Source of the DNA: Shigella phage CWP003
Sequence record: OL856099
Length of the DNA stretch: 64,000 nucleotides
Strand: one strand, 5' to 3'
The notes under the pieces were generated by a model. The model did no database searches. It was given only the letters and a program-made list of their open reading frames with translations, and had not been told where the DNA came from. The position numbers were made by a program, and so were the translations under genes. Shown in pieces: positions 1-60,094 of the stretch. Position 1 is the first letter of the stretch, and each line of letters starts with the position of its first letter.

Positions 1-1295
1 ACCAGTTTGACATCAACTTGTCAGACTTCGACAGCATCATCATGAACCAGTACCAGCTTGTGGCCGCAATCGCAAAAGTTCCGTCGACCAAACTGCTTGG
101 GACTTCGCCAAAAGGCTTTAACGCCACTGGTGAATTCGAGATGGTCAGCTATCACGAAGAGTTGGAAACGTGCCAGCAGCATGACCTGACAAAAATTCTC
201 GACCGCCATTACAAAATCCTTCTCAAATCAGAAGGGGTGAATGTCGATGTTAAGGTTGCATGGGAACCAGTTGGCTCACTTACTGCTACTCAACTTGCAG
301 AAATCAATGATAAGCGAGCCAACACTGGCAAAACTCTTATTGATGCTGGCGTCATTTCTCCTGATGAAGAGCGCGACCGCATCAAAGACGACAAAAACAG
401 CGGCTACAACCGTCTGCCGGAAGACGCAGCAGAAGAAACCCCAGGGATGTCTCCAGAGAATATGGCATTGCTTGGCAAGTCTGCTGGTGAAGTCCTGCAA
501 GGTAAGGCCGATATTGAACAGGCGAAAGCTGATGTCGTTAAGATGGGCGGCCAGTTCTATAGCGAAACAGGTATTATGCCAGAGGGTGCCGCGCGTGGTG
601 AGTTGGCGGAAAACCCTGACAAAGCGCCTGTCGAAATCAACATGGACGATACCGATGATGAATCAAGCCATCAGGTTGATGTCCTAACGCAGTTGAAAGA
701 AGGGCTGGAGGGTATTGCGGATTACTACCTGAAAGAAGGTCAGGATGTGGATTTTGACCCTCAAAAAGATTCACGGTCGGTGCAACCGTCTACCCTTCCA
801 AGCGTTAAAGGACACGTCGTCAACTTACGCCACAACGTGGGTAAAATGGACGCAGCATCATTACCTAAGATGAAGTTGCACGGAATGATTCTTGGCATTG
901 AGAATCCGCGAAACAGCATTCGTAGAGGAAACAGCCTTGACGGTGAATGGGCCGTGAAGATGCCGCACCACTACGGATTCATCAAGGGCACCAAGGGCGC
1001 AGACGGTGATGAAGTCGACTGTTTTGTGGGTCCAAATCTTAAGTCGCCGAAAGTCTTTATCGTGAACCAAAACGATAACTACTCTGGCGAGTTTGATGAA
1101 CACAAGTGTATGCTTGGATTCGATTCAGCAGAAGAAGCGAAAGAAGCTTATCAAGCATCATTTGGTAACGGTTGGAACGGATTCGACTCAATCCACGAAT
1201 TAGATGTGAACTCATTCAAGGAGTGGTTGAAGGGTGATTGCTCTCAAGCATACGGAGCACTCAATAATCCTACTAATTCACCGAAGCAAGGTTGA
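1..1295 (+). CDS. portal-like head protein, 5' end outside window, with C-terminal inorganic-pyrophosphatase-like region
   Basis: Frame is open from window edge (no stop upstream of nt 18) to TGA 1293-1295; sits directly upstream of MuF-like gene; C-terminal part contains YGFIKGTKGADGDEVDCFVG, matching the family I pyrophosphatase D-x-D-x-x-D signature. Confidence 0.45.
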   Translation, partial: QFDINLSDFDSIIMNQYQLVAAIAKVPSTKLLGTSPKGFNATGEFEMVSYHEELETCQQHDLTKILDRHYKILLKSEGVNVDVKVAWEPVGSLTATQLAEINDKRANTGKTLIDAGVISPDEERDRIKDDKNSGYNRLPEDAAEETPGMSPENMALLGKSAGEVLQGKADIEQAKADVVKMGGQFYSETGIMPEGAARGELAENPDKAPVEINMDDTDDESSHQVDVLTQLKEGLEGIADYYLKEGQDVDFDPQKDSRSVQPSTLPSVKGHVVNLRHNVGKMDAASLPKMKLHGMILGIENPRNSIRRGNSLDGEWAVKMPHHYGFIKGTKGADGDEVDCFVGPNLKSPKVFIVNQNDNYSGEFDEHKCMLGFDSAEEAKEAYQASFGNGWNGFDSIHELDVNSFKEWLKGDCSQAYGALNNPTNSPKQG

Positions 1296-1296
1296 T

Positions 1297-2148
1297 ATGG
1301 CTTTTAAAGCTTCGAAAAAACGTGAACGCCGCGCACCCGATAGAGTCGGGCGCGGCAGTCCGATAATCCCATCAAACGCTATTGCGATGGCCTACCGTCG
1401 TGAGATGAAAGGTCTTTGCTATGCGATGATTGATGACTATCAGGCAGGAATTTCAGAGTGGCTTGAAAAGAAGCAGGTGCAGAAGTTCTTTGCGCAAGAC
1501 TCTGCTGATTCAACATTCCAAACTCTTATGAAACGTCTGCAGCTGAAATGGGCAAAGGCGTTTGCTCGTGTTGGGTCGAAGATTGCCGCTGATTTTATCA
1601 AGTCGGTTGAAAAGGGGGCTACTTCTGCTACATTCGCCAGCCTTAAGTCCGCAGGCATAGAAGCGCCAAAGGCCACATATAACAAATTCGTTGAGAACAC
1701 TCTTAGAACAAGCGAGACGTTTAACACGACTCTAGTGACTAAGGTCGGCGAGGATATTCACAACAGAGTGTACGAAGCAGTCATGCTTTCGCTGACTTCG
1801 CCCGACCCAGCCCAGCAAGGCACGTCAGGCATTCAGGCGGCGCTGCGAAACGTAAAACACTTCTCTGCAAAGAGAGTCGACTTAATCGCTAAAGACCAGA
1901 CAAGCAAATTGTATTGCGTTCTAAGCGATGAAAGGATGCGCCAGAATGGAGTTGAAGAATTTGAATGGGCGCACTCAGGAGCAGGAAAGGAGCCGCGAAT
2001 CTCTCATGAACATGTCGACGGAATGAGATTCAAACTTGATGACAAGCGTCTATGGGAAGTGGGCGGAGAGTTGAAGTTCAAAAAGGGTGACATCGGTCCT
2101 CCTGGATGGGCGATACACTGCAAGTGCAGAAAAATACCAATCATTTGA
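1297..2148 (+). CDS. phage head morphogenesis protein (Mu F-like / SPP1 gp7-like minor head protein)
   Basis: ATG 4 nt after upstream stop; C-terminal HVDGMRFKLDD...GPPGWAIHCKCR resembles the MuF domain; position after portal-like gene. Confidence 0.6.
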   Translation: MAFKASKKRERRAPDRVGRGSPIIPSNAIAMAYRREMKGLCYAMIDDYQAGISEWLEKKQVQKFFAQDSADSTFQTLMKRLQLKWAKAFARVGSKIAADFIKSVEKGATSATFASLKSAGIEAPKATYNKFVENTLRTSETFNTTLVTKVGEDIHNRVYEAVMLSLTSPDPAQQGTSGIQAALRNVKHFSAKRVDLIAKDQTSKLYCVLSDERMRQNGVEEFEWAHSGAGKEPRISHEHVDGMRFKLDDKRLWEVGGELKFKKGDIGPPGWAIHCKCRKIPII

Positions 2149-2155
2149 GGTCATT

Positions 2156-3076
2156 ATGACGATACCAATCAGCACGTTTCCTCTATCTGGACAAACGCCA
2201 GTATTGCCTGCTGTATATGCTAACGGTTTGGCGATTGTTTCGGAATTCACATCCGATAAAAACCTGATTGTTCCATTGAGTCCGCCATTGGCGTCTGGAT
2301 ACAATTCAGTTGGCCAGTTCTTTATGATCGGTAATGATGGCGATTCTACCAGCAAGCCGAATCTGACACTTTCAGTTCCCAAAATGAACATAACAGACGT
2401 GCAGACTGGTTTAACTGCATCTACGATCACCATCGCTTTTGGAGAAGCAGTGATTATAGGCATGGAGTCTGGAGGGTCCAAGAATGCTGTCGCCGTTAAG
2501 GTAGTCAAATCCAGCAGCAACCAATACACACTACCAGCGGCAACGGCTTCTGTTCTTGGCGGCGTCAAAATAGGAAGTGGCATAAGCGTTGCAGGTGACG
2601 GTACAATTAGTGTGACTCAATACTCATTACCGATTGCATCAGCATCAACCTTGGGTGGCATAAAGGTAGGAACGACACTATCAATTGATGGTTCTGGCGT
2701 CCTTAATGCTGCTGCAAGCACTGTGCAGAACGCAAGCAACAGCGTAAGCAATCCTCCGACAACTCTGGTGAATCTGGCAACCTTAAACCTGCCTGCAGGG
2801 AAATGGCTTGTGACAGCAAGTCAGTTGACTGTCGCGACAGCAGGAGTTCAAGCGAATACCGGAATTACAGTCAAGCTGTCAACAAGTAATTCAGATATTA
2901 CGGATGATGCATTTACAATGTCAGCTGGCATTCGGGCTGCAGGTCGTTTCGGCGGCAATATCCCAACAAAGATAATTACTCTTGCCGCGCCTGGCAACGT
3001 GTATCTAAACTATCAATGCACAGACGCATTGACATCTACCGTTTACGGACAGATCACCGCAATTAAGTTGAACTAA
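2156..3076 (+). CDS. structural protein with internal tandem repeats (fibre-like)
   Basis: ATG at 2156 after GAGG; repeated segment YTLPAATASVLGGVKIGSGISVAGDGTISV / YSLPIASASTLGGIKVGTTLSIDGSGV. Confidence 0.45.
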   Translation: MTIPISTFPLSGQTPVLPAVYANGLAIVSEFTSDKNLIVPLSPPLASGYNSVGQFFMIGNDGDSTSKPNLTLSVPKMNITDVQTGLTASTITIAFGEAVIIGMESGGSKNAVAVKVVKSSSNQYTLPAATASVLGGVKIGSGISVAGDGTISVTQYSLPIASASTLGGIKVGTTLSIDGSGVLNAAASTVQNASNSVSNPPTTLVNLATLNLPAGKWLVTASQLTVATAGVQANTGITVKLSTSNSDITDDAFTMSAGIRAAGRFGGNIPTKIITLAAPGNVYLNYQCTDALTSTVYGQITAIKLN

Positions 3077-3086
3077 AGAGGAAGTT

Positions 3087-3224
3087 ATGCAAAAGATTAT
3101 TCAGTCACGTTACGTTAAAGTGCGAAATATTAATTGCAACTCTTTGCTTTCTTGGAAATGGGCTGTTTACGACTCGATGCTGATTGGCGTTTTAGTTGCT
3201 GGAGTGCTTTTTAATATTCACTGA
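3087..3224 (+). CDS. small membrane protein (45 aa)
   Basis: ATG preceded by AGAGGAAG; hydrophobic C-terminal segment MLIGVLVAGVLF; below the ORF-table size cutoff. Confidence 0.25.
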   Translation: MQKIIQSRYVKVRNINCNSLLSWKWAVYDSMLIGVLVAGVLFNIH

Positions 3225-3270
3225 ATCGCCTGGCAATGGATTGCCGCAGGATTTTACGCGTATAATGACG

Positions 3271-3531
3271 TATCATCCGTATCAAGTAAGTAGTTGTTTT
3301 CAAAAGAATCTTACGGATGATACGGATGATACGCGTTGCCGCGATACTTTATAGGAATTCAAATAAATTAATTTAAAATTATATATCTAATTTAATTTTA
3401 TTTTTTTATAAACTCTTATATATGAAAAGTATCCGTATCATCCGTATCATCCGTAGCACACCAGTGATAGCGCGGCTTATACACTGATACGGATAAAAAT
3501 ACGCCTCATTTTATCCGTATCATCCGTATCA
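3271..3531. repeat. iteron-like array of 9-bp unit ATCCGTATC (both orientations) flanking an AT-rich core at 3355-3425
   Basis: GTATCATCCGTATC 3271-3284; inverted copies 3314-3334; three tandem units 3432-3458; further copies 3488-3496 and 3514-3531. Confidence 0.6.
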
Positions 3532-3588
3532 CACTAATTAAGGCGCGGCTATATCGGTTGTTATACATATTCAAACCATAATTATTGT

Positions 3589-3617
3589 TTGCCTAAGTTT
3601 TTTTCATTAGATATAAT
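3589..3617 (+). promoter_or_regulatory. sigma70-type promoter upstream of scaffold/capsid genes
   Basis: TTGCCT, 17-nt spacer, TATAAT, about 30 nt upstream of start at 3647. Confidence 0.45.
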
Positions 3618-3646
3618 ACACAATACTTATTTGAGGGTGGATGCGA

Positions 3647-5059
3647 ATGCAAACGGCACGCGAAATTGACAAAAATGGATTCTTGACGATTGTGGGTTGT
3701 CCCATTTCGTCATTTGGCATTTTTGATTATTCTGCAGGTCAGGTTGGACTTGATGGTGATCCGAATCGCATCGTAAAAGTTTATCGCCCAGAGTCAGCGG
3801 TGAAAGACCCCGAAGCGATAGATTCATTCAAAAATATCCCTTTCATCGACAATCACGAAATGCTTTCTGGATTCGAAGGTGATGAGGATAACACAGCACC
3901 CGAAGAGTATGGCGTTGATGGCGTTCTAACTGGCAATGTTTATTATGACAAGCCATGGATGCGCGGCGACCTTAAAGTTTTTAGCCGTCGTCTGAAGAAA
4001 GCCATCGATTCTGGAAAGGTTGACTTGTCTTTGGGCTATGACTGTGAATTCATCATACAGTCTGGAGAGTTTGACGGGCAGCCGTATGAAGTGGTACAGA
4101 CAACTCTTCGCGGCAACCACATTGCTCTCGTGGACGTTGGTCGAGTACCAGGTGCACGGGTGCTGGATGGTCGTTGCTTTGACCATCTTTGTTTGACGAC
4201 TGTAACACCATCCAACGAGGATTTAGACATGCCAAAACCGTTAAAAGGTAAAGCGCGTGATAATGCTGTTGAACAGCTGAAATCACTGATCCCTGCGCTC
4301 GAACAATTTCTGAATGAAGAGAGCACCGAAGCTGCTCATCAGGACGAAGTTGAAGTGAAAGCAGAAGAGAAGGATTCAACCGAAGAACGTGAAGAAGTGA
4401 TGGTTGATCCAGAAGTTAAAGCAGAAGCTGAAGAGACTCCAGAAGGTGAAGAGAAGTTTGAAGTTGAATCTGAATCTCACGCTGGCGGCGAGCTTCCGCA
4501 ACTGATCAGCCAAATCGAAGCACTTATTGCAAAACTGAAAGGTGGCGCGGTAGGTGATGAAGAAGAAGTTGAAGCCGAAGTCAAAGACGAAGAAGTTGAA
4601 GTCAAGGCTGAAGATGTATCACCTTGCGACAAAGCTGAAGATGTGGTTAGCGGCCTGCAAAACAGCAACGTAAAGGGGGCTTCGGTCGAAAAAGATGACA
4701 AACCGACAAAAGCGGCGAAAGCGTCGCCAGGTCCAGCAAAAGGGGAACACTCAATGGCATCTGATTCAGCAGTTGCTGCTTTCTACGCTGATTCTGCTCG
4801 TAAGAATAGCCTCTACCAGCGCCTGTCTAAAGTTGTTGGTGCCTTTGATCATGCAACTATGGACTCCAAGTCCGTAGCGAAATATGGCGCTAAAAAGTTA
4901 GGCTTGAAGTGCGTTGATGGTGCTGAGTTTGACGTGGTGGATAATTATCTGCGCGGCGTTGAACACGGTCAAAAACAGCGTGTAGTCGCAAAACAAAAGG
5001 CCGCTGCGGATTCTGCAGCAACTGACGAAGCATTTGAAGCTTGGTTGAAAGGGGAATAA
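3647..5059 (+). CDS. scaffolding / prohead protease-like protein with acidic E/V/K-rich repeat region
   Basis: GAGGGTGG RBS 6 nt before ATG 3647 (alternative ATG 3641); long acidic low-complexity stretch typical of scaffolds; position before capsid gene. Confidence 0.5.
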   Translation: MQTAREIDKNGFLTIVGCPISSFGIFDYSAGQVGLDGDPNRIVKVYRPESAVKDPEAIDSFKNIPFIDNHEMLSGFEGDEDNTAPEEYGVDGVLTGNVYYDKPWMRGDLKVFSRRLKKAIDSGKVDLSLGYDCEFIIQSGEFDGQPYEVVQTTLRGNHIALVDVGRVPGARVLDGRCFDHLCLTTVTPSNEDLDMPKPLKGKARDNAVEQLKSLIPALEQFLNEESTEAAHQDEVEVKAEEKDSTEEREEVMVDPEVKAEAEETPEGEEKFEVESESHAGGELPQLISQIEALIAKLKGGAVGDEEEVEAEVKDEEVEVKAEDVSPCDKAEDVVSGLQNSNVKGASVEKDDKPTKAAKASPGPAKGEHSMASDSAVAAFYADSARKNSLYQRLSKVVGAFDHATMDSKSVAKYGAKKLGLKCVDGAEFDVVDNYLRGVEHGQKQRVVAKQKAAADSAATDEAFEAWLKGE

Positions 5060-55580: not shown

Positions 55581-55937
55581 GATACGCGTAAAATACGGCT
55601 AAAAATTAAGCGTATCATGGCTGCAGGCCGCGCCGTTCCTGGATTCCTCTTTTCCAAATTGGTACACCCTTACGTCATGATACGTCATGGTTTTTTATCC
55701 GTATCAGTGTACAGCCCTTGCCGCGCCTGGCTTGTACATTAATCTTACGGATGATACGGATAAAACTGGGCATCGTTATATATATAATTTGAAAAATTAA
55801 TTAACTCCATTTTGAATTAATTTAAATTAATTTTTTTCTACATCCTCATACTTATGTTAATTTATATATAACGTATTATCCGTAAGATATAAGTAAAAAC
55901 AAAGACTTGCGGCAATACGGATGATACGTCATGATAC
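55581..55937. repeat. second iteron-like array (GATACGGAT / ATCCGTATC units, GTCATGATACGTCATG variants) around an AT-rich core at 55770-55870
   Basis: CTTACGGATGATACGGATAAAAC 55744-55766 and TTTATCCGTATCA 55696-55708 closely match segments of the 3271-3531 array; AT-rich core shares ATTAATTTAAA(T)TA. Confidence 0.6.
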
Positions 55938-56103
55938 GCTTCAACCAGCCAGTAGCGGCTAAGTCATTGATTTGCATAACAAGCGGCGAAAGGGATGGAC
56001 TTCTTTTATACGTATCAAACAGTACACCACGCACCACGGTCCGATATTCATTCAGCACTATGATTTATGTACGTTTACAGCCAATTTGAACATCAATCTG
56101 CAC

Positions 56104-56132
56104 TTGAATATAATGTTCAATCATTATATAAT
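56104..56132 (+). promoter_or_regulatory. sigma70-type promoter for gene 56167
   Basis: TTGAAT-17-TATAAT. Confidence 0.45.
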
Positions 56133-56144
56133 TCACACTATTAA

Positions 56145-56168
56145 TTTGCACTATGGGATTTGCACTAT
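56145..56168 (+). promoter_or_regulatory. two tandem TTTGCACTAT motifs between -10 element and start codon (operator-like)
   Basis: copies at 56145-56154 and 56159-56168, the second overlapping ATG 56167. Confidence 0.45.
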
Positions 56169-56640
56169 GAGTCAAGATTATGTAGCAATGCCTGAAGACT
56201 TTGAAGACCCGCGATTTGCAGAGCATAATCAGGCATTATTCGATGAGTTCATCGACCTTGTTATTCAGGGCCATGACATGCGCGCAGCTTTTGCACTAGT
56301 ATTTGGCATGGAGGTTGCGACCGATAACTACACTGGCCAGCGAATCCTGTGCACTCAGCGCAATCCGTACTACAAGATGCGCTACAAAAAGCGTATGGAA
56401 GAGATGCCATTGAAGGAATTGTGGAGCGTAAAGAGTTCCATTCACAATTTAGTGAAGCTTGTGCGTGATCCAGAAGTCGCAGCATCAGCCAAGCTTAATG
56501 CCATTCGTGAACTGAATATCATCTACGGCATTACGATGATTGATGAAAACGGCAATAGTAAAATGGGCCGTTCCATGGATGATTTCTACAAGGATTTTGG
56601 AGAGGCGGCCAAAGAGGGTGAGCAATTCTCCCGCCACTAG
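56167..56640 (+). CDS. hypothetical protein (157 aa)
   Basis: ATG at 56167 within table ORF 55972-56640; GGGA 8 nt upstream; promoter at 56104. Confidence 0.45.
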   Translation: MSQDYVAMPEDFEDPRFAEHNQALFDEFIDLVIQGHDMRAAFALVFGMEVATDNYTGQRILCTQRNPYYKMRYKKRMEEMPLKELWSVKSSIHNLVKLVRDPEVAASAKLNAIRELNIIYGITMIDENGNSKMGRSMDDFYKDFGEAAKEGEQFSRH

Positions 56641-56644
56641 CCAA

Positions 56645-57038
56645 TTTGCACTATAAAACGGCCCTAGAACACATTTTCTCCACTTCTAGGGCCATCGGTA
56701 ATACGACGGGGAAGGCTGCAACCATAAACGCGTTAGAAAGTGTATTATTATAAGTCATCTTTTAGTCACTTTACGTAACAATTTACGACCTTCCGCCGTC
56801 CAGTCGAACGACTCCACCAGCAAATTTGCACTATAACCTAAGACGATGCGCCCTTTCTCGTTATCTACCCGCCAACAAGTCTCAAATAGCATTCGATTTG
56901 CACTATTAACTATCGCCGCAACGCGCGTTGGGTAAGCGCAATTTGCACTATGGTCATAAAGGGATAAGGTGCGACCACTTCCGATGGACAACGTAGCGAT
57001 GAGAATAAGCGTATTCATAAGCCACCAATTTGCACTAT
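56645..57038. repeat. array of five (A)ATTTGCACTAT motifs in about 400 bp
   Basis: copies at 56645, 56825, 56897, 56942, 57029; variants at 57334, 57344, 57613. Confidence 0.6.
56660..56693 (+). terminator. perfect 10-bp stem hairpin after gene 56167 (terminator or RNA element)
   Basis: GGCCCTAGAA, 14-nt loop, TTCTAGGGCC; no U-tract. Confidence 0.35.
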
Positions 57039-57039
57039 G

Positions 57040-57061
57040 AAAAGCGACCCCGAAGGGCCGC
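57040..57061 (-). terminator. rho-independent terminator for minus-strand gene 57069-57695
   Basis: on minus strand GCGGCCC-UUCG-GGGUCGC hairpin followed by UUUU. Confidence 0.5.
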
Positions 57062-57068
57062 CATTCGA

Positions 57069-57695
57069 TTAGATAATCTGGAAGGTGTAGGACTTGTTGC
57101 CGAACTCGAAGTTCAAGCGTCCCGCTTCTTTAAGCTTCATGCGGAAGCGAATGTGCTTGCTATCCGGTAAGCCCAGCGCGGCGAACGCTACGCGGACTGA
57201 TTTGAACTCGCCTACACCCTCGACCATAACGGCGTTACGGGTGAGACGCTTTTGCGCCACTTCCTTGTTATCCCAACTTTTTGCAATACCTTCGCTATTC
57301 GAACGGCGATGGGAAGGAGTTCCATTTTGCACTACGCAACTTGCACTATCGTTTAGGCCGCTTTTAACGAAGGCTTCATACTCTTCGTCGGTCATCGCGT
57401 CGAGTTCTTCCTGGGTCGGCTCGGCCTTTTTGACGACCGCACGCGCCTTATGCGTTTTTACATCGCTGGACACTTCCTCGCGCGGCTTCGCGTCTGGGAT
57501 GGGCGATTCGTTGGACGGCTCATCGAGCGCGTTTAAGGACTCGATTAACGCGATTACGCGAGTCTCGGCGGTCCGGCGGTCCGCAAACTTCTTAATCGGT
57601 TTTGAGCCGGAATTTGCATTATAGAATGCAACGAGGTCGGCGGTCTTAGTTGCGATAACGTCGCCGCTAGTAGAAAAGCGATTTAAGCTAACCAT
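57069..57695 (-). CDS. hypothetical protein (island gene)
   Basis: AGGAG RBS 8 nt before ATG; CpG-rich codon usage distinct from rest of window. Confidence 0.5.
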   Translation of the reverse strand: MVSLNRFSTSGDVIATKTADLVAFYNANSGSKPIKKFADRRTAETRVIALIESLNALDEPSNESPIPDAKPREEVSSDVKTHKARAVVKKAEPTQEELDAMTDEEYEAFVKSGLNDSASCVVQNGTPSHRRSNSEGIAKSWDNKEVAQKRLTRNAVMVEGVGEFKSVRVAFAALGLPDSKHIRFRMKLKEAGRLNFEFGNKSYTFQII

Positions 57696-57775
57696 AATAA
57701 ACTCCTATTTGTTAGGGCGCTAGGCGCGAAAGAATTTTATTAAAGCGCCGCGCACGACGCTCTAAAAATCCTCTC

Positions 57776-58090
57776 TTACTCTTCGTCGTCTTCGATTAAT
57801 TCGAGGGCGAAGGCGTAAGCTTTGCTATCGTAATTAACTAAAACGGCGAGTTCGAACTCGTTAATAAACGCCGTTTTACCGCATAAATTTAATTCCGCAT
57901 CGACTTCGAAGAATCCGTTTTCGTCGCGCTCTAAGCGAGAAGCAGCGAGTTGCTCGATTACCGTCGCGTCGTTAATTTCTTCGCCTAAGCGAACGCCGGA
58001 GAATTTCGCGAGAATTTCGCCGTAAGTAAGCGTAACGCCCTGGACTTCGGCGGTTGCGTTTTCGAGGGTAAAGCGGGTAACGATAGCCAT
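57776..58090 (-). CDS. small acidic protein (island gene)
   Basis: AGGAG RBS; 104 aa, Asp/Glu-rich; own sigma70-type promoter. Confidence 0.5.
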   Translation of the reverse strand: MAIVTRFTLENATAEVQGVTLTYGEILAKFSGVRLGEEINDATVIEQLAASRLERDENGFFEVDAELNLCGKTAFINEFELAVLVNYDSKAYAFALELIEDDEE

Positions 58091-58158
58091 AACAAACTCC
58101 TAGTTGGGAGAGGCGTTAACGACCTATTCGTTAACTCATCCCGTCCCGATATGAGTAC

Positions 58159-58186
58159 ATTATAATATAGTGTAGAAAAAAGTAAA
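58159..58186 (-). promoter_or_regulatory. sigma70-type promoter (minus strand) for 57776 gene
   Basis: reverse complement reads GTGCTTTACT-16-TATAAT. Confidence 0.5.
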
Positions 58187-58230
58187 GCACTTTTTCGATA
58201 AAAATGCGATAAATTATTTTATCTTTTTTC

Positions 58231-58258
58231 TTTACTTCTTCGTACACTCGCGTATACT
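58231..58258 (+). promoter_or_regulatory. sigma70-type promoter for 58315 gene
   Basis: TTTACT-16-TATACT within CTTTACTTCTTCGTACACT box. Confidence 0.5.
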
Positions 58259-58314
58259 TGTTTATATCGAGACGGGCGATGGCCCTTTCTTCTACTAGCA
58301 TCGGGAGCTTTATT

Positions 58315-58617
58315 ATGACTACTTTAATCTCTTCCATCCTTACTTACGACGAAGACCGCTTAACCGTTCGCTCTCTTATCGCCGCCGTTAACGCGGAACT
58401 CGAAACTAGCATTATTAAAGCGCGCGCCGTCGCCTTCGTCGGCCTTTCCTTCGACGATATTAAGTATGCAGAGTATAGCGCCATTCGCGTCGTTACTACC
58501 GACGATAACGCCGTTACCCTTATCGAGACGGTTACGCCTCGCGGCGAAGCGTTAATTATCGTCGAGTATATCGACGTAGAAGGCGATAAAGCTTATAAAT
58601 ATTTTATCGCAGAATAA
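58315..58617 (+). CDS. small acidic protein (island gene)
   Basis: GGGAG RBS 7 nt before ATG 58315; 100 aa. Confidence 0.5.
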   Translation: MTTLISSILTYDEDRLTVRSLIAAVNAELETSIIKARAVAFVGLSFDDIKYAEYSAIRVVTTDDNAVTLIETVTPRGEALIIVEYIDVEGDKAYKYFIAE

Positions 58618-58629
58618 CGAAAAAAGTGC

Positions 58630-58658
58630 TTTACTTCTTCGTACACTAAGACTATAAT
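58630..58658 (+). promoter_or_regulatory. sigma70-type promoter for 58726 gene
   Basis: TTTACT-17-TATAAT in same CTTTACTTCTTCGTACACT box; conserved leader TTTATATCGAGA. Confidence 0.55.
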
Positions 58659-58725
58659 GTTTTATATCGAGAGGGGATGAGGTAGCGAATAGGTCGCTAC
58701 CCTCCCGACTAACTAGGAGAATATT

Positions 58726-59016
58726 ATGATTACTTTAGCCGCTATCCGTTCCGCTCGCGTCGAAACTTCCGAAAACTCTAACGTATTTGGCGAAAAACTT
58801 AAAAACGTTTATCTCTTTAACGTAGATGCGACTATCGAAGAGCTTCATAGTCCTATCGATTTTAGCGAATTTACGGAACTCGAAGAGGAAGATATTACTA
58901 CCTTCCGCGTTACTATCGAAGGTAAGGTTTATTTTGCTACGGAGTTCGGCGGCGAATATCTCGCGGTATCCGAAGGCGAAGGCCGTTACTCTTTCTTTAA
59001 AATCGTCTCCTTATAA
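58726..59016 (+). CDS. small acidic protein (island gene)
   Basis: AGGAG RBS; 96 aa, Glu-rich; terminator downstream. Confidence 0.5.
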   Translation: MITLAAIRSARVETSENSNVFGEKLKNVYLFNVDATIEELHSPIDFSEFTELEEEDITTFRVTIEGKVYFATEFGGEYLAVSEGEGRYSFFKIVSL

Positions 59017-59035
59017 TACCCTTCCGTTACTAATA

Positions 59036-59060
59036 GGCCGCGCTTAGTCGCGGCTTTTCT
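59036..59060 (+). terminator. rho-independent terminator
   Basis: GCCGCG-CTTAGT-CGCGGC hairpin followed by TTTT. Confidence 0.5.
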
Positions 59061-59531
59061 TCGTCCCTATCTCGATGCGCTTCTCCGCGAAAACTCCTTT
59101 ATCCTTCCCTTCTTCGTCGCATAATCTTCGTCGAGATGCGCCTTAGTTCGCATAACAGGTATTACGTTAAATGGAGAACATCGCGTAAGTCCTTGTTTTA
59201 TATAGACACCTATATCGGACCGTTAGGGAGGGTCGCGTAAGTCGTTGTTTTATAAAGGCGCAAAACTTTCCCTTCGTTCCGAACTAAAACGAGAAATATG
59301 CCGACCCTTCGCCCGAAAATAGTACGCGTGCGAAATTACCGACATCTAGAATAATCCCCACCGATATTATCCTGCGCGCAATCATTCGCTTTCGAATCAT
59401 TATGCTTCATATTATTATGCGTCGAATCATTAGCTTTCGAATTGTAACGCTGGAAACTGTAACGGCGATTGATTATTGCGTTCGTGTGGTTTTTAGGGCA
59501 TGGGTCTTTTGGTGCGTTTTGGTACTTGATG

Positions 59532-59644
59532 AAATTTGCAGTACACTAATCAAAATACGACACATTTGGTCCACTAACTTTTCAAAGAAAAAGTCCTAGA
59601 CAGTACCGTACTATTTTGTGCCCACAGTAAATTTGCAGTACACT
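59532..59644. repeat. pair of perfect 16-bp direct repeats AAATTTGCAGTACACT
   Basis: copies at 59532-59547 and 59629-59644; related to the TTTGCACTAT family. Confidence 0.55.
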
Positions 59645-59713: not shown

Positions 59714-60094
59714 TTATTCACTCTTATGGGCATCACCAAAGCCATCCGCAATCTGGCTGATCAATGATTCAATGGACACAGTTTTACCAATTGATCGAGC
59801 GGTAATAGCAAGCATATTATCAATCAAACCATGATTAGATGCATATGTTCCAGGTTTTGAATCATCTTCAGAACAGCCAAAAAGCTGATCGCGAAGACTT
59901 TCAAGAGAACGCTCAATATTTTCCAGCTTCTCTTCTAAATCGGATTGGCGACGTAAAACCCATGTTAAGTCGCGGCTGCCGACTTCCAACCCATCAGAAT
60001 CGCAAGCTGGAACGTCAATTTTGATGCTGCCACCAAAGGCCATTCCGCTGCCTTTAGCATATGTATTGTGAATAGAATCATTTTTATTTGACAT
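59714..60094 (-). CDS. hypothetical protein
   Basis: start taken at internal ATG (MSNKNDS) at 60094 of table ORF 59714-60124. Confidence 0.4.
   Translation of the reverse strand: MSNKNDSIHNTYAKGSGMAFGGSIKIDVPACDSDGLEVGSRDLTWVLRRQSDLEEKLENIERSLESLRDQLFGCSEDDSKPGTYASNHGLIDNMLAITARSIGKTVSIESLISQIADGFGDAHKSE

Follow-up and report, generated by a model that had tools for sequence, protein, structure and literature searches.

The direct terminal repeat (DTR) of Shigella phage CWP003 carries, in and around the gene for the small terminase (terS), an array of about ten copies of a 12-bp word that all point in the same direction. We interpret this array as a site that the terminase recognizes in cis and in one orientation, with the small terminase protein (TerS) as its most likely binder, in a manner like that of lambda cosB or SPP1 pac; we put the probability of this reading at about 45%. 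The array lies in a 64,000-nucleotide stretch of sequence record OL856099, which we call the window and to which all positions refer unless a relative is named.

A scan of the window found the 11-mer ATTTGCACTAT seven times without mismatch, always on the + strand, at 56144, 56158, 56644, 56824, 56896, 56941 and 57028, where ~0.03 occurrences would be expected; it is the commonest 11-mer of the window. The array that a preliminary description, made from the letters alone, had drawn here is thus real, and the coordinates given there, one base later, mark the 10-mer TTTGCACTAT. When up to one mismatch to ATTTGCACTAT is allowed, the count against a shuffled background is 10 matches versus 1.95 expected, and 10 was reached in none of 100 dinucleotide-preserving shuffles. 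Three degenerate variants follow on the same strand: TTTTGCACTAC at 57325, ACTTGCACTAT at 57339 and ATTTGCATTAT at 57612. The motif is confined to this one locus, with no exact ATTTGCACTAT elsewhere in the window and no motif copy in the ~4 kb of genome outside it, as read from the closest record, OZ035737. A consensus built from 70 sites is R-A-T-Y-Y-G-C-A-C-T-A-Y, or RATYYGCACTAY. Only these 12 bp are conserved, and the bases 3' of TAT vary. The motif is asymmetric, without dyad symmetry, and every copy is a direct repeat of the others.

The repetition belongs to the DNA and not to an encoded peptide. Copies 4-6 (numbering of Table 1) do share one frame of a minus-strand small open reading frame (ORF) of 87 amino acids, where they are read as x-S-A-N, and the motif spacings show a weak period-3 signal that comes from the coding context; both would fit a chance cluster or the by-product of a repeated peptide. 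Of the seven exact copies, however, four lie outside coding sequence, and homologous copies are read in other frames: an extra copy in the related contigs L008 and L013 encodes the small-ORF start M-I-V-Q-I in a different frame, and copies that fall in the disordered C-terminal TerS tail encode H-Y-P-P-A or A-L-Y-P, depending on the lineage. Selection therefore targets the word as DNA, whether a copy is non-coding or read in one frame or another, and the repeated-peptide origin that the preliminary description had raised is rejected. Together with the shuffles and the conservation of the motif in six lineages, this refutes an origin by chance or through a peptide, for which we see practically no remaining probability. 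In keeping with selection on the word, 4 of 77 columns vary among 14 genomes in the seven exact copies, versus 53 of 373 nearby (Fisher one-sided p = 0.018), and the single common polymorphism, T/C at 56827 in copy 4, sits on a Y position of the consensus. Of the 14 Wifcevirus genomes, 11 have ATTTGCACTAT without mismatch in place of the 57339 copy, and both members of the pair to which this copy belongs are replaced in two. Constraint on the encoded protein may be what maintains the motif-like copy inside terS.

The region shares 92-98% identity with phages of the genus Wifcevirus, E. coli myoviruses that are distant relatives of the Pseudomonas PB1 group (Pbunavirus). We compared it with contigs L007, L008, L012 and L013, whose encoded TerS is 44-64% identical, and with Pantoea phage Kyle (L014), at 42%; over the array-bearing lineages, TerS identity is 42-70%. 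The flanking DNA of these five relatives is not alignable, yet the motif is present in all of them. The reduced word YYGYACTAY falls on the terS strand versus the other strand 10 to 0 times in the array region of the window (56146-57341), 8 to 0 in L007, 8 to 0 in L008, 11 to 0 in L012, 9 to 0 in L013 and 11 to 0 in Kyle, and all counted sites lie within ~1.5 kb around terS. The location that is conserved begins in the 3' half of terS and extends as far as the 3' end of the convergent gene, and the copy adjoining a hairpin that matches 57039..57066 is also found in L007, L008, L012 and L013.

Two copies had been placed by the preliminary description between the -10 element and the start codon of gene 56167, in an operator-like position. 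That placement is correct for the window: the two promoters, TTGAAC-17-TATAAT at 56086-56114 and TTGAAT-17-TATAAT at 56104-56132, both lie upstream of the copies at 56144-56154 and 56158-56168, the second of which runs into the ATG at 56167. L007 goes further, with three tandem copies 12-13 bp apart, the last on the terS ATG. The position is not conserved, however, for Kyle has no copies upstream of terS, and the conserved feature is therefore the array from terS to the convergent gene rather than an operator.

Outside these lineages, no array was found in Pbunavirus, and no equivalent one in BcepF1 or in the GC-rich metagenomic relatives L023 and L029. L030 has only a cluster of GAACTTGCGG, in both orientations, upstream of terS. 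The Serratia Myosmarviruses, whose DTRs are predicted by PhageTerm and whose TerS is 29-30% identical, have no motif array. A tandem-copy scan of viral_contigs returned at least 120 stretches, and the fetched loci were screened for co-oriented clusters; among the matches listed, such clusters were only Wifcevirus itself or repeats in coding sequence, for example in a 1928-residue ORF of L079.

Gene 56167-56640, which the preliminary description had named first among the proteins that might bind the array, encodes a small terminase of the E217 type. The gene has no Pfam match. A profile of the protein (alignment A1, with five metagenomic homologues) matched PDB entry 7UXE over residues 4-151 (hmmsearch, E = 1.3e-45), and an AlphaFold model with a mean predicted local distance difference test score (pLDDT) of 72 had 7uxe_A as its only significant Foldseek match (E = 4e-6, probability 1.00, 38% identity). 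This PDB entry holds the small-terminase decamer of Pseudomonas phage E217. Consistent with this, an identical protein is labelled terminase small subunit in the Mansfield record. The ATG at 56167 is used in the Mansfield and BASEL records, whereas the WFH record starts terS at an upstream TTG (55972) to give 210 residues; the alignment of homologues favours the ATG. The BASEL records call the product a hypothetical protein, and the terS annotation is thus missing from most Wifcevirus entries.

The array also occupies a defined place relative to the genome end. The Mansfield record was opened at a DTR predicted by PhageTerm (1..3673), PhageTerm being a read-based terminus prediction, and both this record and the WFH record, which has the DTR at both ends, map to exactly 55809..59509. 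Published terminal repeats are ~3.7 kb (PMC6563267) and 3,673 bp (PMC6753283) long. With the DTR so placed, the first strong copy of the array lies 335 bp in from the physical left end of the virion DNA; the last copy is 1540 bp inside that end, and the strong part of the array ends ~1.2 kb inside it.

The genome end, mature or preferred, lies 358 bp upstream of terS in Wifcevirus, 387 bp in MyoSmar, 376 bp in MTx, 356 bp in Kyle and 601-603 bp in Pbunavirus. This near-constant distance across the family indicates that packaging initiation is anchored next to terS. Pbunaviruses are reported as circularly permuted headful packagers. In JG024, which is reported to be circularly permuted, long reads show a start peak at 59,376 and coverage dips on its left side (PMC10913387), which suggests headful packaging running rightwards into terS; the JG024 terS starts at 59,977, and the read-start peak coincides with the point at which the Pa193 and Ab28 records open. 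Repeats adjoin terS in the fixed-end lineages, and the headful lineage, Pbunavirus, has none.

We infer TerS to be the protein that reads the array, and propose the following sequence of events. On the concatemer, TerS rings would first occupy the RATYYGCACTAY sites of 56050-57350, about ten in number and arranged head to tail. A cyclic TerS oligomer would present its helix-turn-helix motifs in one rotational sense, which would fit direct repeats and not the inverted repeats of dimeric repressors. Once bound, TerS would label the concatemer as phage DNA and direct the cut of the large terminase to a fixed left boundary at 55809, 335 bp upstream, after which packaging would run rightwards through terS to the right DTR boundary of the next repeat. 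In Wifcevirus and L007, copies 1 and 2 might additionally let TerS repress its own synthesis; by their position on the transcript start, ribosome-binding region and ATG of terS, these copies may autoregulate the gene. Such autoregulation is plausible because over-expressed TerS lowers the infectivity of E217 (PMC9611059).

Several findings weigh against TerS as the binder or against parts of this scheme. The spacings range from 12 to 608 bp with no helical or ring period at 10-14 bp, and this irregularity does not support a simple model in which DNA wraps around the ring. Most of the array lies 0.8-1.5 kb from the cut, beyond the distances of cosB and pacR. The motif stays the same across lineages whose TerS proteins are only 42-50% identical, while a separate repeat family beside the cut site differs from lineage to lineage; that other family could be the specific terminase site, and the motif could serve a conserved host or phage factor. 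A neighbouring gene, phrog_4730, is equally conserved and its product is a possible binder. The operator-like copies are missing from Kyle, and the rightward direction of packaging comes solely from the JG024 coverage description. We know of no DNA recognition site for the TerS family of E217 and PB1. E217 TerS, encoded ~58 kb from terL and the sole homologue to have been characterised, showed no appreciable DNA binding in vitro (PMC9611059). It is the missing periodicity, the distant sites, the same word accompanying quite different TerS proteins and a binding partner that is a candidate only that keep our estimate for the terminase reading below one half.

Read as a packaging site, the array shares features with several known systems and differs from each of them. 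In lambda cosB, short repeated TerS sites likewise lie just inside the first-packaged end, between the cut and terS or overlapping it (gpNu1 sites R3, R2 and R1, between cosN and Nu1), and packaging proceeds from the cut through the sites into terS. Lambda differs in having three 16-bp sites within ~200 bp of the nick, an IHF site and 12-nucleotide cohesive ends, whereas the present array has about ten co-oriented 12-bp sites over 1.5 kb, in a 3.7-kb DTR with the cut 335 bp away; the TerS fold also differs, an E217-type decamer here and a winged-helix dimer in gpNu1. SPP1 pac (pacL - pacC - pacR, with the TerS G1P) resembles it in its ring-shaped TerS, in sites that fall in the promoter region and inside or after the 5' part of terS, and in the overlap of recognition with possible autoregulation. 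In contrast to the precise ends of the present phage and an array that reaches past the 3' end of terS, SPP1 packages by the headful mechanism with an imprecise series of ends, has its sites ~100-200 bp from the cut, and is bound partly through bent A-tract DNA rather than a sharp 12-mer.

E217 and the Pbunaviruses share a homologous TerS, a terS gene far from terL and a packaging start a few hundred bp upstream of terS; they differ in circularly permuted headful packaging, in lacking a RATYYGCACTAY array and in the negative binding result for E217 TerS. P1 pac, too, has multiple copies of a short word, required for recognition by the terminase, in or next to the terminase gene, but its TGATCA/G hexamers stand symmetrically on both sides of the cut and are under the control of Dam methylation, a geometry closer to that of the TACGGATGATACG repeats around 55809, described below, than to the co-oriented array. 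TerS-binding repeats next to terS are thus already known; judged against these systems, what would be new is the number of 12-mers (about ten) and their strict co-orientation, their spread over 1.5 kb to either side of terS and within a long DTR, and a TerS family without a known site.

How phages with long exact DTRs choose and duplicate their ends is poorly understood, and the TerS family of E217 and PB1 includes therapeutically used phages. A 12-bp word repeated about ten times in one orientation is a concrete substrate for binding studies and cryo-electron microscopy of a decameric TerS, with uses in phage genome rebooting, packageable plasmids and the control of transduction. It also enables a comparison of headful Pbunavirus with fixed-end Wifcevirus, Kylevirus and Myosmarvirus, which have a common terminase.

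The preliminary description had proposed a cluster of sites for a DNA-binding protein, with packaging among several functions listed. The data fit a site cluster, and the binder it left open need not be TerS. Another phage protein that binds double-stranded DNA, either the phrog_4730 product or a small early protein encoded in the DTR, might occupy the array, which would then control early DTR transcription as a regulatory element or a sink (repression of terS or silencing of convergent transcription) instead of serving packaging. The two copies between the -10 element and the terS ATG (three in L007), the synteny of phrog_4730 in every lineage, the two copies fused to minus-strand terminators and the sigma-70-like promoters of the DTR, which are typical of early regions, would all agree with such a role. 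A co-orientation of at least 55 to 0 over six lineages and the lack of a dyad would be unexpected for a conventional repressor, however; most copies lie within or antisense to genes and distant from promoters, and Kyle lacks those upstream of terS. Moreover, phrog_4730 also occurs in Pbunavirus and Myosmarvirus, both without the motif, and no DNA-binding domain was detected in its product. We consider this alternative unlikely.

The absolute strand specificity in all lineages raises a further alternative: a polar signal, recognised either in single-stranded DNA or by an enzyme that moves along the DNA, in the way that RecBCD recognises Chi and FtsK recognises KOPS. The reader might be a host nuclease or helicase entering the left end, a translocating terminase for which the motif is a slow-down or termination cue, or a primase-helicase of the VapE type or a primase of the RepB type that acts in DTR duplication or recombination-dependent replication; the phage does encode RepB-type primase and VapE helicase domains. 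The motif is kept across phages of different enterobacterial hosts, as would hold for a host-determined signal, and it is interspersed with or abuts the Chi complement CCACCAGC in the same orientation, the one that is RecBCD-active from the left end. Nonetheless, the motif is not Chi and is not known to resemble any polar signal, no enzyme of such specificity is known, and a local function accounts better for sites crowded into 1.5 kb beside terS. The Serratia relatives, furthermore, keep Chi clusters without the motif, whereas Wifcevirus keeps the motif with Chi almost lost, so the two are separable. On balance a polar signal appears rather improbable. Should TerS not be the binder, a strictly polar, Chi-interleaved signal that is conserved in phages of several enterobacterial genera would be a new type of genome-end element.

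The Chi complements are a feature of the relatives in their own right. CCACCAGC, the complement of Chi (GCTGGTGG), is strongly enriched on the terS strand over the first 2 kb of their DTRs, where ~0.03 copies per 2 kb are expected: the terS strand has 10 and the other strand 0 in Kyle, 7 and 0 in L008, 5 and 0 in L013, 4 and 1 in MTx, and 4 and 0 in MyoSmar. The copies span 255-1972 in L014 (Kyle), 323-1824 in L008, 411-1836 in L013, 179-1276 in L015 and 5653-5993 in L009. Their orientation is the active one for RecBCD entering the left genome end, and they often abut the motif, as with GCACTAYCCACCAGC in the TerS tail. Wifcevirus keeps one exact copy; the window has decayed copies at 56634 (CCACTAGC, preceding motif copy 3) and 57021. 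The cluster may protect the left end or stimulate RecBCD/RecA recombination between the DTRs.

All copies lie on the strand transcribed from the terS promoters, AUG ends four of the seven exact copies, and copy 2 covers the terS start. The motif might therefore act in RNA, as AUUUGCACUAU on rightward transcripts, either as the site of a translational repressor or as that of an RNA-binding or processing factor; one copy would occlude the terS ribosome-binding region and AUG, and the others would lie on read-through RNA antisense to two minus-strand genes. Only one of those AUGs is a gene start, however, and copies past the hairpins would need read-through. The motif has no Rfam match and no structure, and the Kyle copies are mostly in or antisense to coding DNA and unrelated to start codons. 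An action in RNA is accordingly very unlikely in our estimate.

Further identities were considered for the motif and rejected. A sigma-70 -10 element is excluded, since position 6 is never T in the seven hexamers that begin with TAT and since most copies are antisense to genes. The CACTAT core is shared with promoters of the T7/SP6 type, but only 12 bp are conserved rather than ~23 bp, and no ORF of suitable size contains an RNA polymerase domain; the preliminary description was right to set aside a long promoter for a phage RNA polymerase. A repressor operator is contradicted by the lack of a dyad; overlap with the promoter or transcript start holds for two of about ten copies in the window and for three in L007, and for none in Kyle. 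Chi itself differs from the motif complement, ATAGTGCAAAT, and true Chi complements co-occur in the same orientation. The partition or centromere role that had also been listed finds no support. As for replication-origin iterons, the motif is irregularly spaced, and it is another repeat family that borders the AT-rich core (55775-55870); the listed origin role fits that nearby family and not the array.

Table 1. Positions of the motif copies and neighbouring features in the window
Feature	Coordinates	Strand	Remarks
Direct terminal repeat (DTR)	55809..59509		placed by homology; left genome end 55809, right boundary after 59509
Weak upstream copy TTCAGCACTATG	56050..56061	+	variable within genus
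Two overlapping sigma-70-like promoters into terS	56086..56132	+	each 10/12 consensus positions
Motif copy 1 AATTTGCACTAT	56143..56154	+	between -10 element and terS start; invariant in 14 Wifcevirus genomes
Motif copy 2 GATTTGCACTAT	56157..56168	+	over ribosome-binding region and terS ATG; 14 bp after copy 1
terS, small terminase, 157 residues, E217 type	56167..56640	+	profile and fold match to 7UXE
Motif-like copy in terS CTTTTGCACTAG	56288..56299	+	encodes A-F-A-L; also in L007
Motif copy 3	56643..56654	+	begins 3 bp past terS stop codon
Hairpin, 10-bp stem, terminator for minus-strand small ORF	56660..56693	-	z = -3.8; terminator annotated in WFH
Small ORF, 87 residues, signal-peptide-like N-terminus	56755..57018	-	36-58% identity across lineages
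Chi complement CCACCAGC	56814..56821	+	abuts motif copy 4
Motif copy 4	56823..56834	+	directly abutted by Chi complement CCACCAGC
Motif copy 5	56895..56906	+	exact copy
Motif copy 6	56940..56951	+	exact copy
Motif copy 7	57027..57038	+	non-coding, between small-ORF start and next hairpin; invariant in 14 genomes
G+C-rich hairpin, terminator for minus-strand gene 57069-57695	57039..57066	-	terminator annotated in WFH
Neighbour gene phrog_4730, 208 residues	57069..57695	-	conserved; holds three degenerate motif copies
Paired copies ATTTTGCACTAC / AACTTGCACTAT	57324..57349	+	14 bp apart
Degenerate copy AATTTGCATTAT	57611..57622	+	poorly conserved
Right-terminus element	59510-59556, 59620-59645		in L014 (Kyle) at 3604-3650

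The ORF at 56755-57018 on the minus strand is, to judge from its conservation, a real conserved small protein with invariant Cys, Trp and Arg, encoded antisense to the array inside the DTR and annotated as hypothetical in BASEL and WFH. The T-run of the hairpin at 56660..56693 is the complement of motif copy 3. For the phrog_4730 protein, neither Pfam, PHROGs and NCBIfam nor sequence and profile searches of the PDB gave an annotation, and a homologue search returned near-identical sequences only.

A second repeat family, TACGGATGATACG, has nine exact copies and two more within two mismatches, versus 1.0 expected. At 55746-55928 and again at 3269-3528 it flanks, in inverted orientation, an AT-rich core of ~110 bp, and the two places are paralogous (79% blast match). 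The left genome end, 55809, falls inside the first core, and the other region stands upstream of the gene for the head protease/scaffold (3641). Equivalents specific to each lineage are present upstream of terS in L007, L008, L012, Kyle, Pbunavirus (CCGGTAATTAGGG) and L030 (GAACTTGCGG). The TACGGATGATACG element looks like either an origin (iterons with an unwinding element, as in SaPI or P4) or a cut-site recognition element of the P1-pac kind.

At the other end of the DTR, the preliminary description had listed AAATTTGCAGTACACT at 59532, 23 bp beyond the right boundary, with another copy at 59629, as related variants of the motif. Alignment with relatives shows that the conserved part at both places is TTTGGTACTT...GTACACTAATCAAAA; the homologues in L007, L008, L012 and Kyle keep TTTRGTACYT...GTACACTAATCARAA and not TTTGCA, and the two sites belong instead to a right-terminus element, TTTRGTACYT-N5-AATTTSCA(C)AGTACACTAATCARAA, which starts ~10 bp past the right DTR boundary in Wifcevirus, Kyle, L007, L008 and L012. 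In Kyle it stands at an equal distance from the boundary of a 3,603-bp DTR. The element is probably the right-end (termination) cut signal. The Serratia phages MTx and MyoSmar, too, have GTACACT, at their left terminus.

Taken with the array, these elements invite a broader and speculative view, improbable as a whole in our judgement, in which the left 1.5 kb of the DTR forms a composite genome-end module made of an AT-rich, origin-like core that is bordered by inverted repeats and contains the cut, the polar RATYYGCACTAY array and, in relatives, a dense Chi cluster in the orientation that acts on RecBCD entering there. As a directional signal, the array would turn a sequence-blind headful terminase of the E217 type into a precise packager of long DTRs, and it may couple packaging, DTR duplication and RecBCD-driven recombination at one genome end.

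The Serratia Myosmarviruses have a repeat of their own where Wifcevirus has its array: a triplet of the 21-mer AAAAAATAAGCATGCTTTGTA, with the palindrome AAGCATGCTT within it, stands directly after the terS stop codon inside the DTR (5526-5640 in L009, 965-1088 in L015). In the middle of the CWP003 DTR, imperfect inverted repeats at 58088-58219 and 58597-58728, with arms of 65 and 52 nucleotides that are 77-79% complementary, carry divergent sigma-70-like promoters at 58186-58159 (-) and 58630-58658 (+); they look like duplicated early promoter modules.

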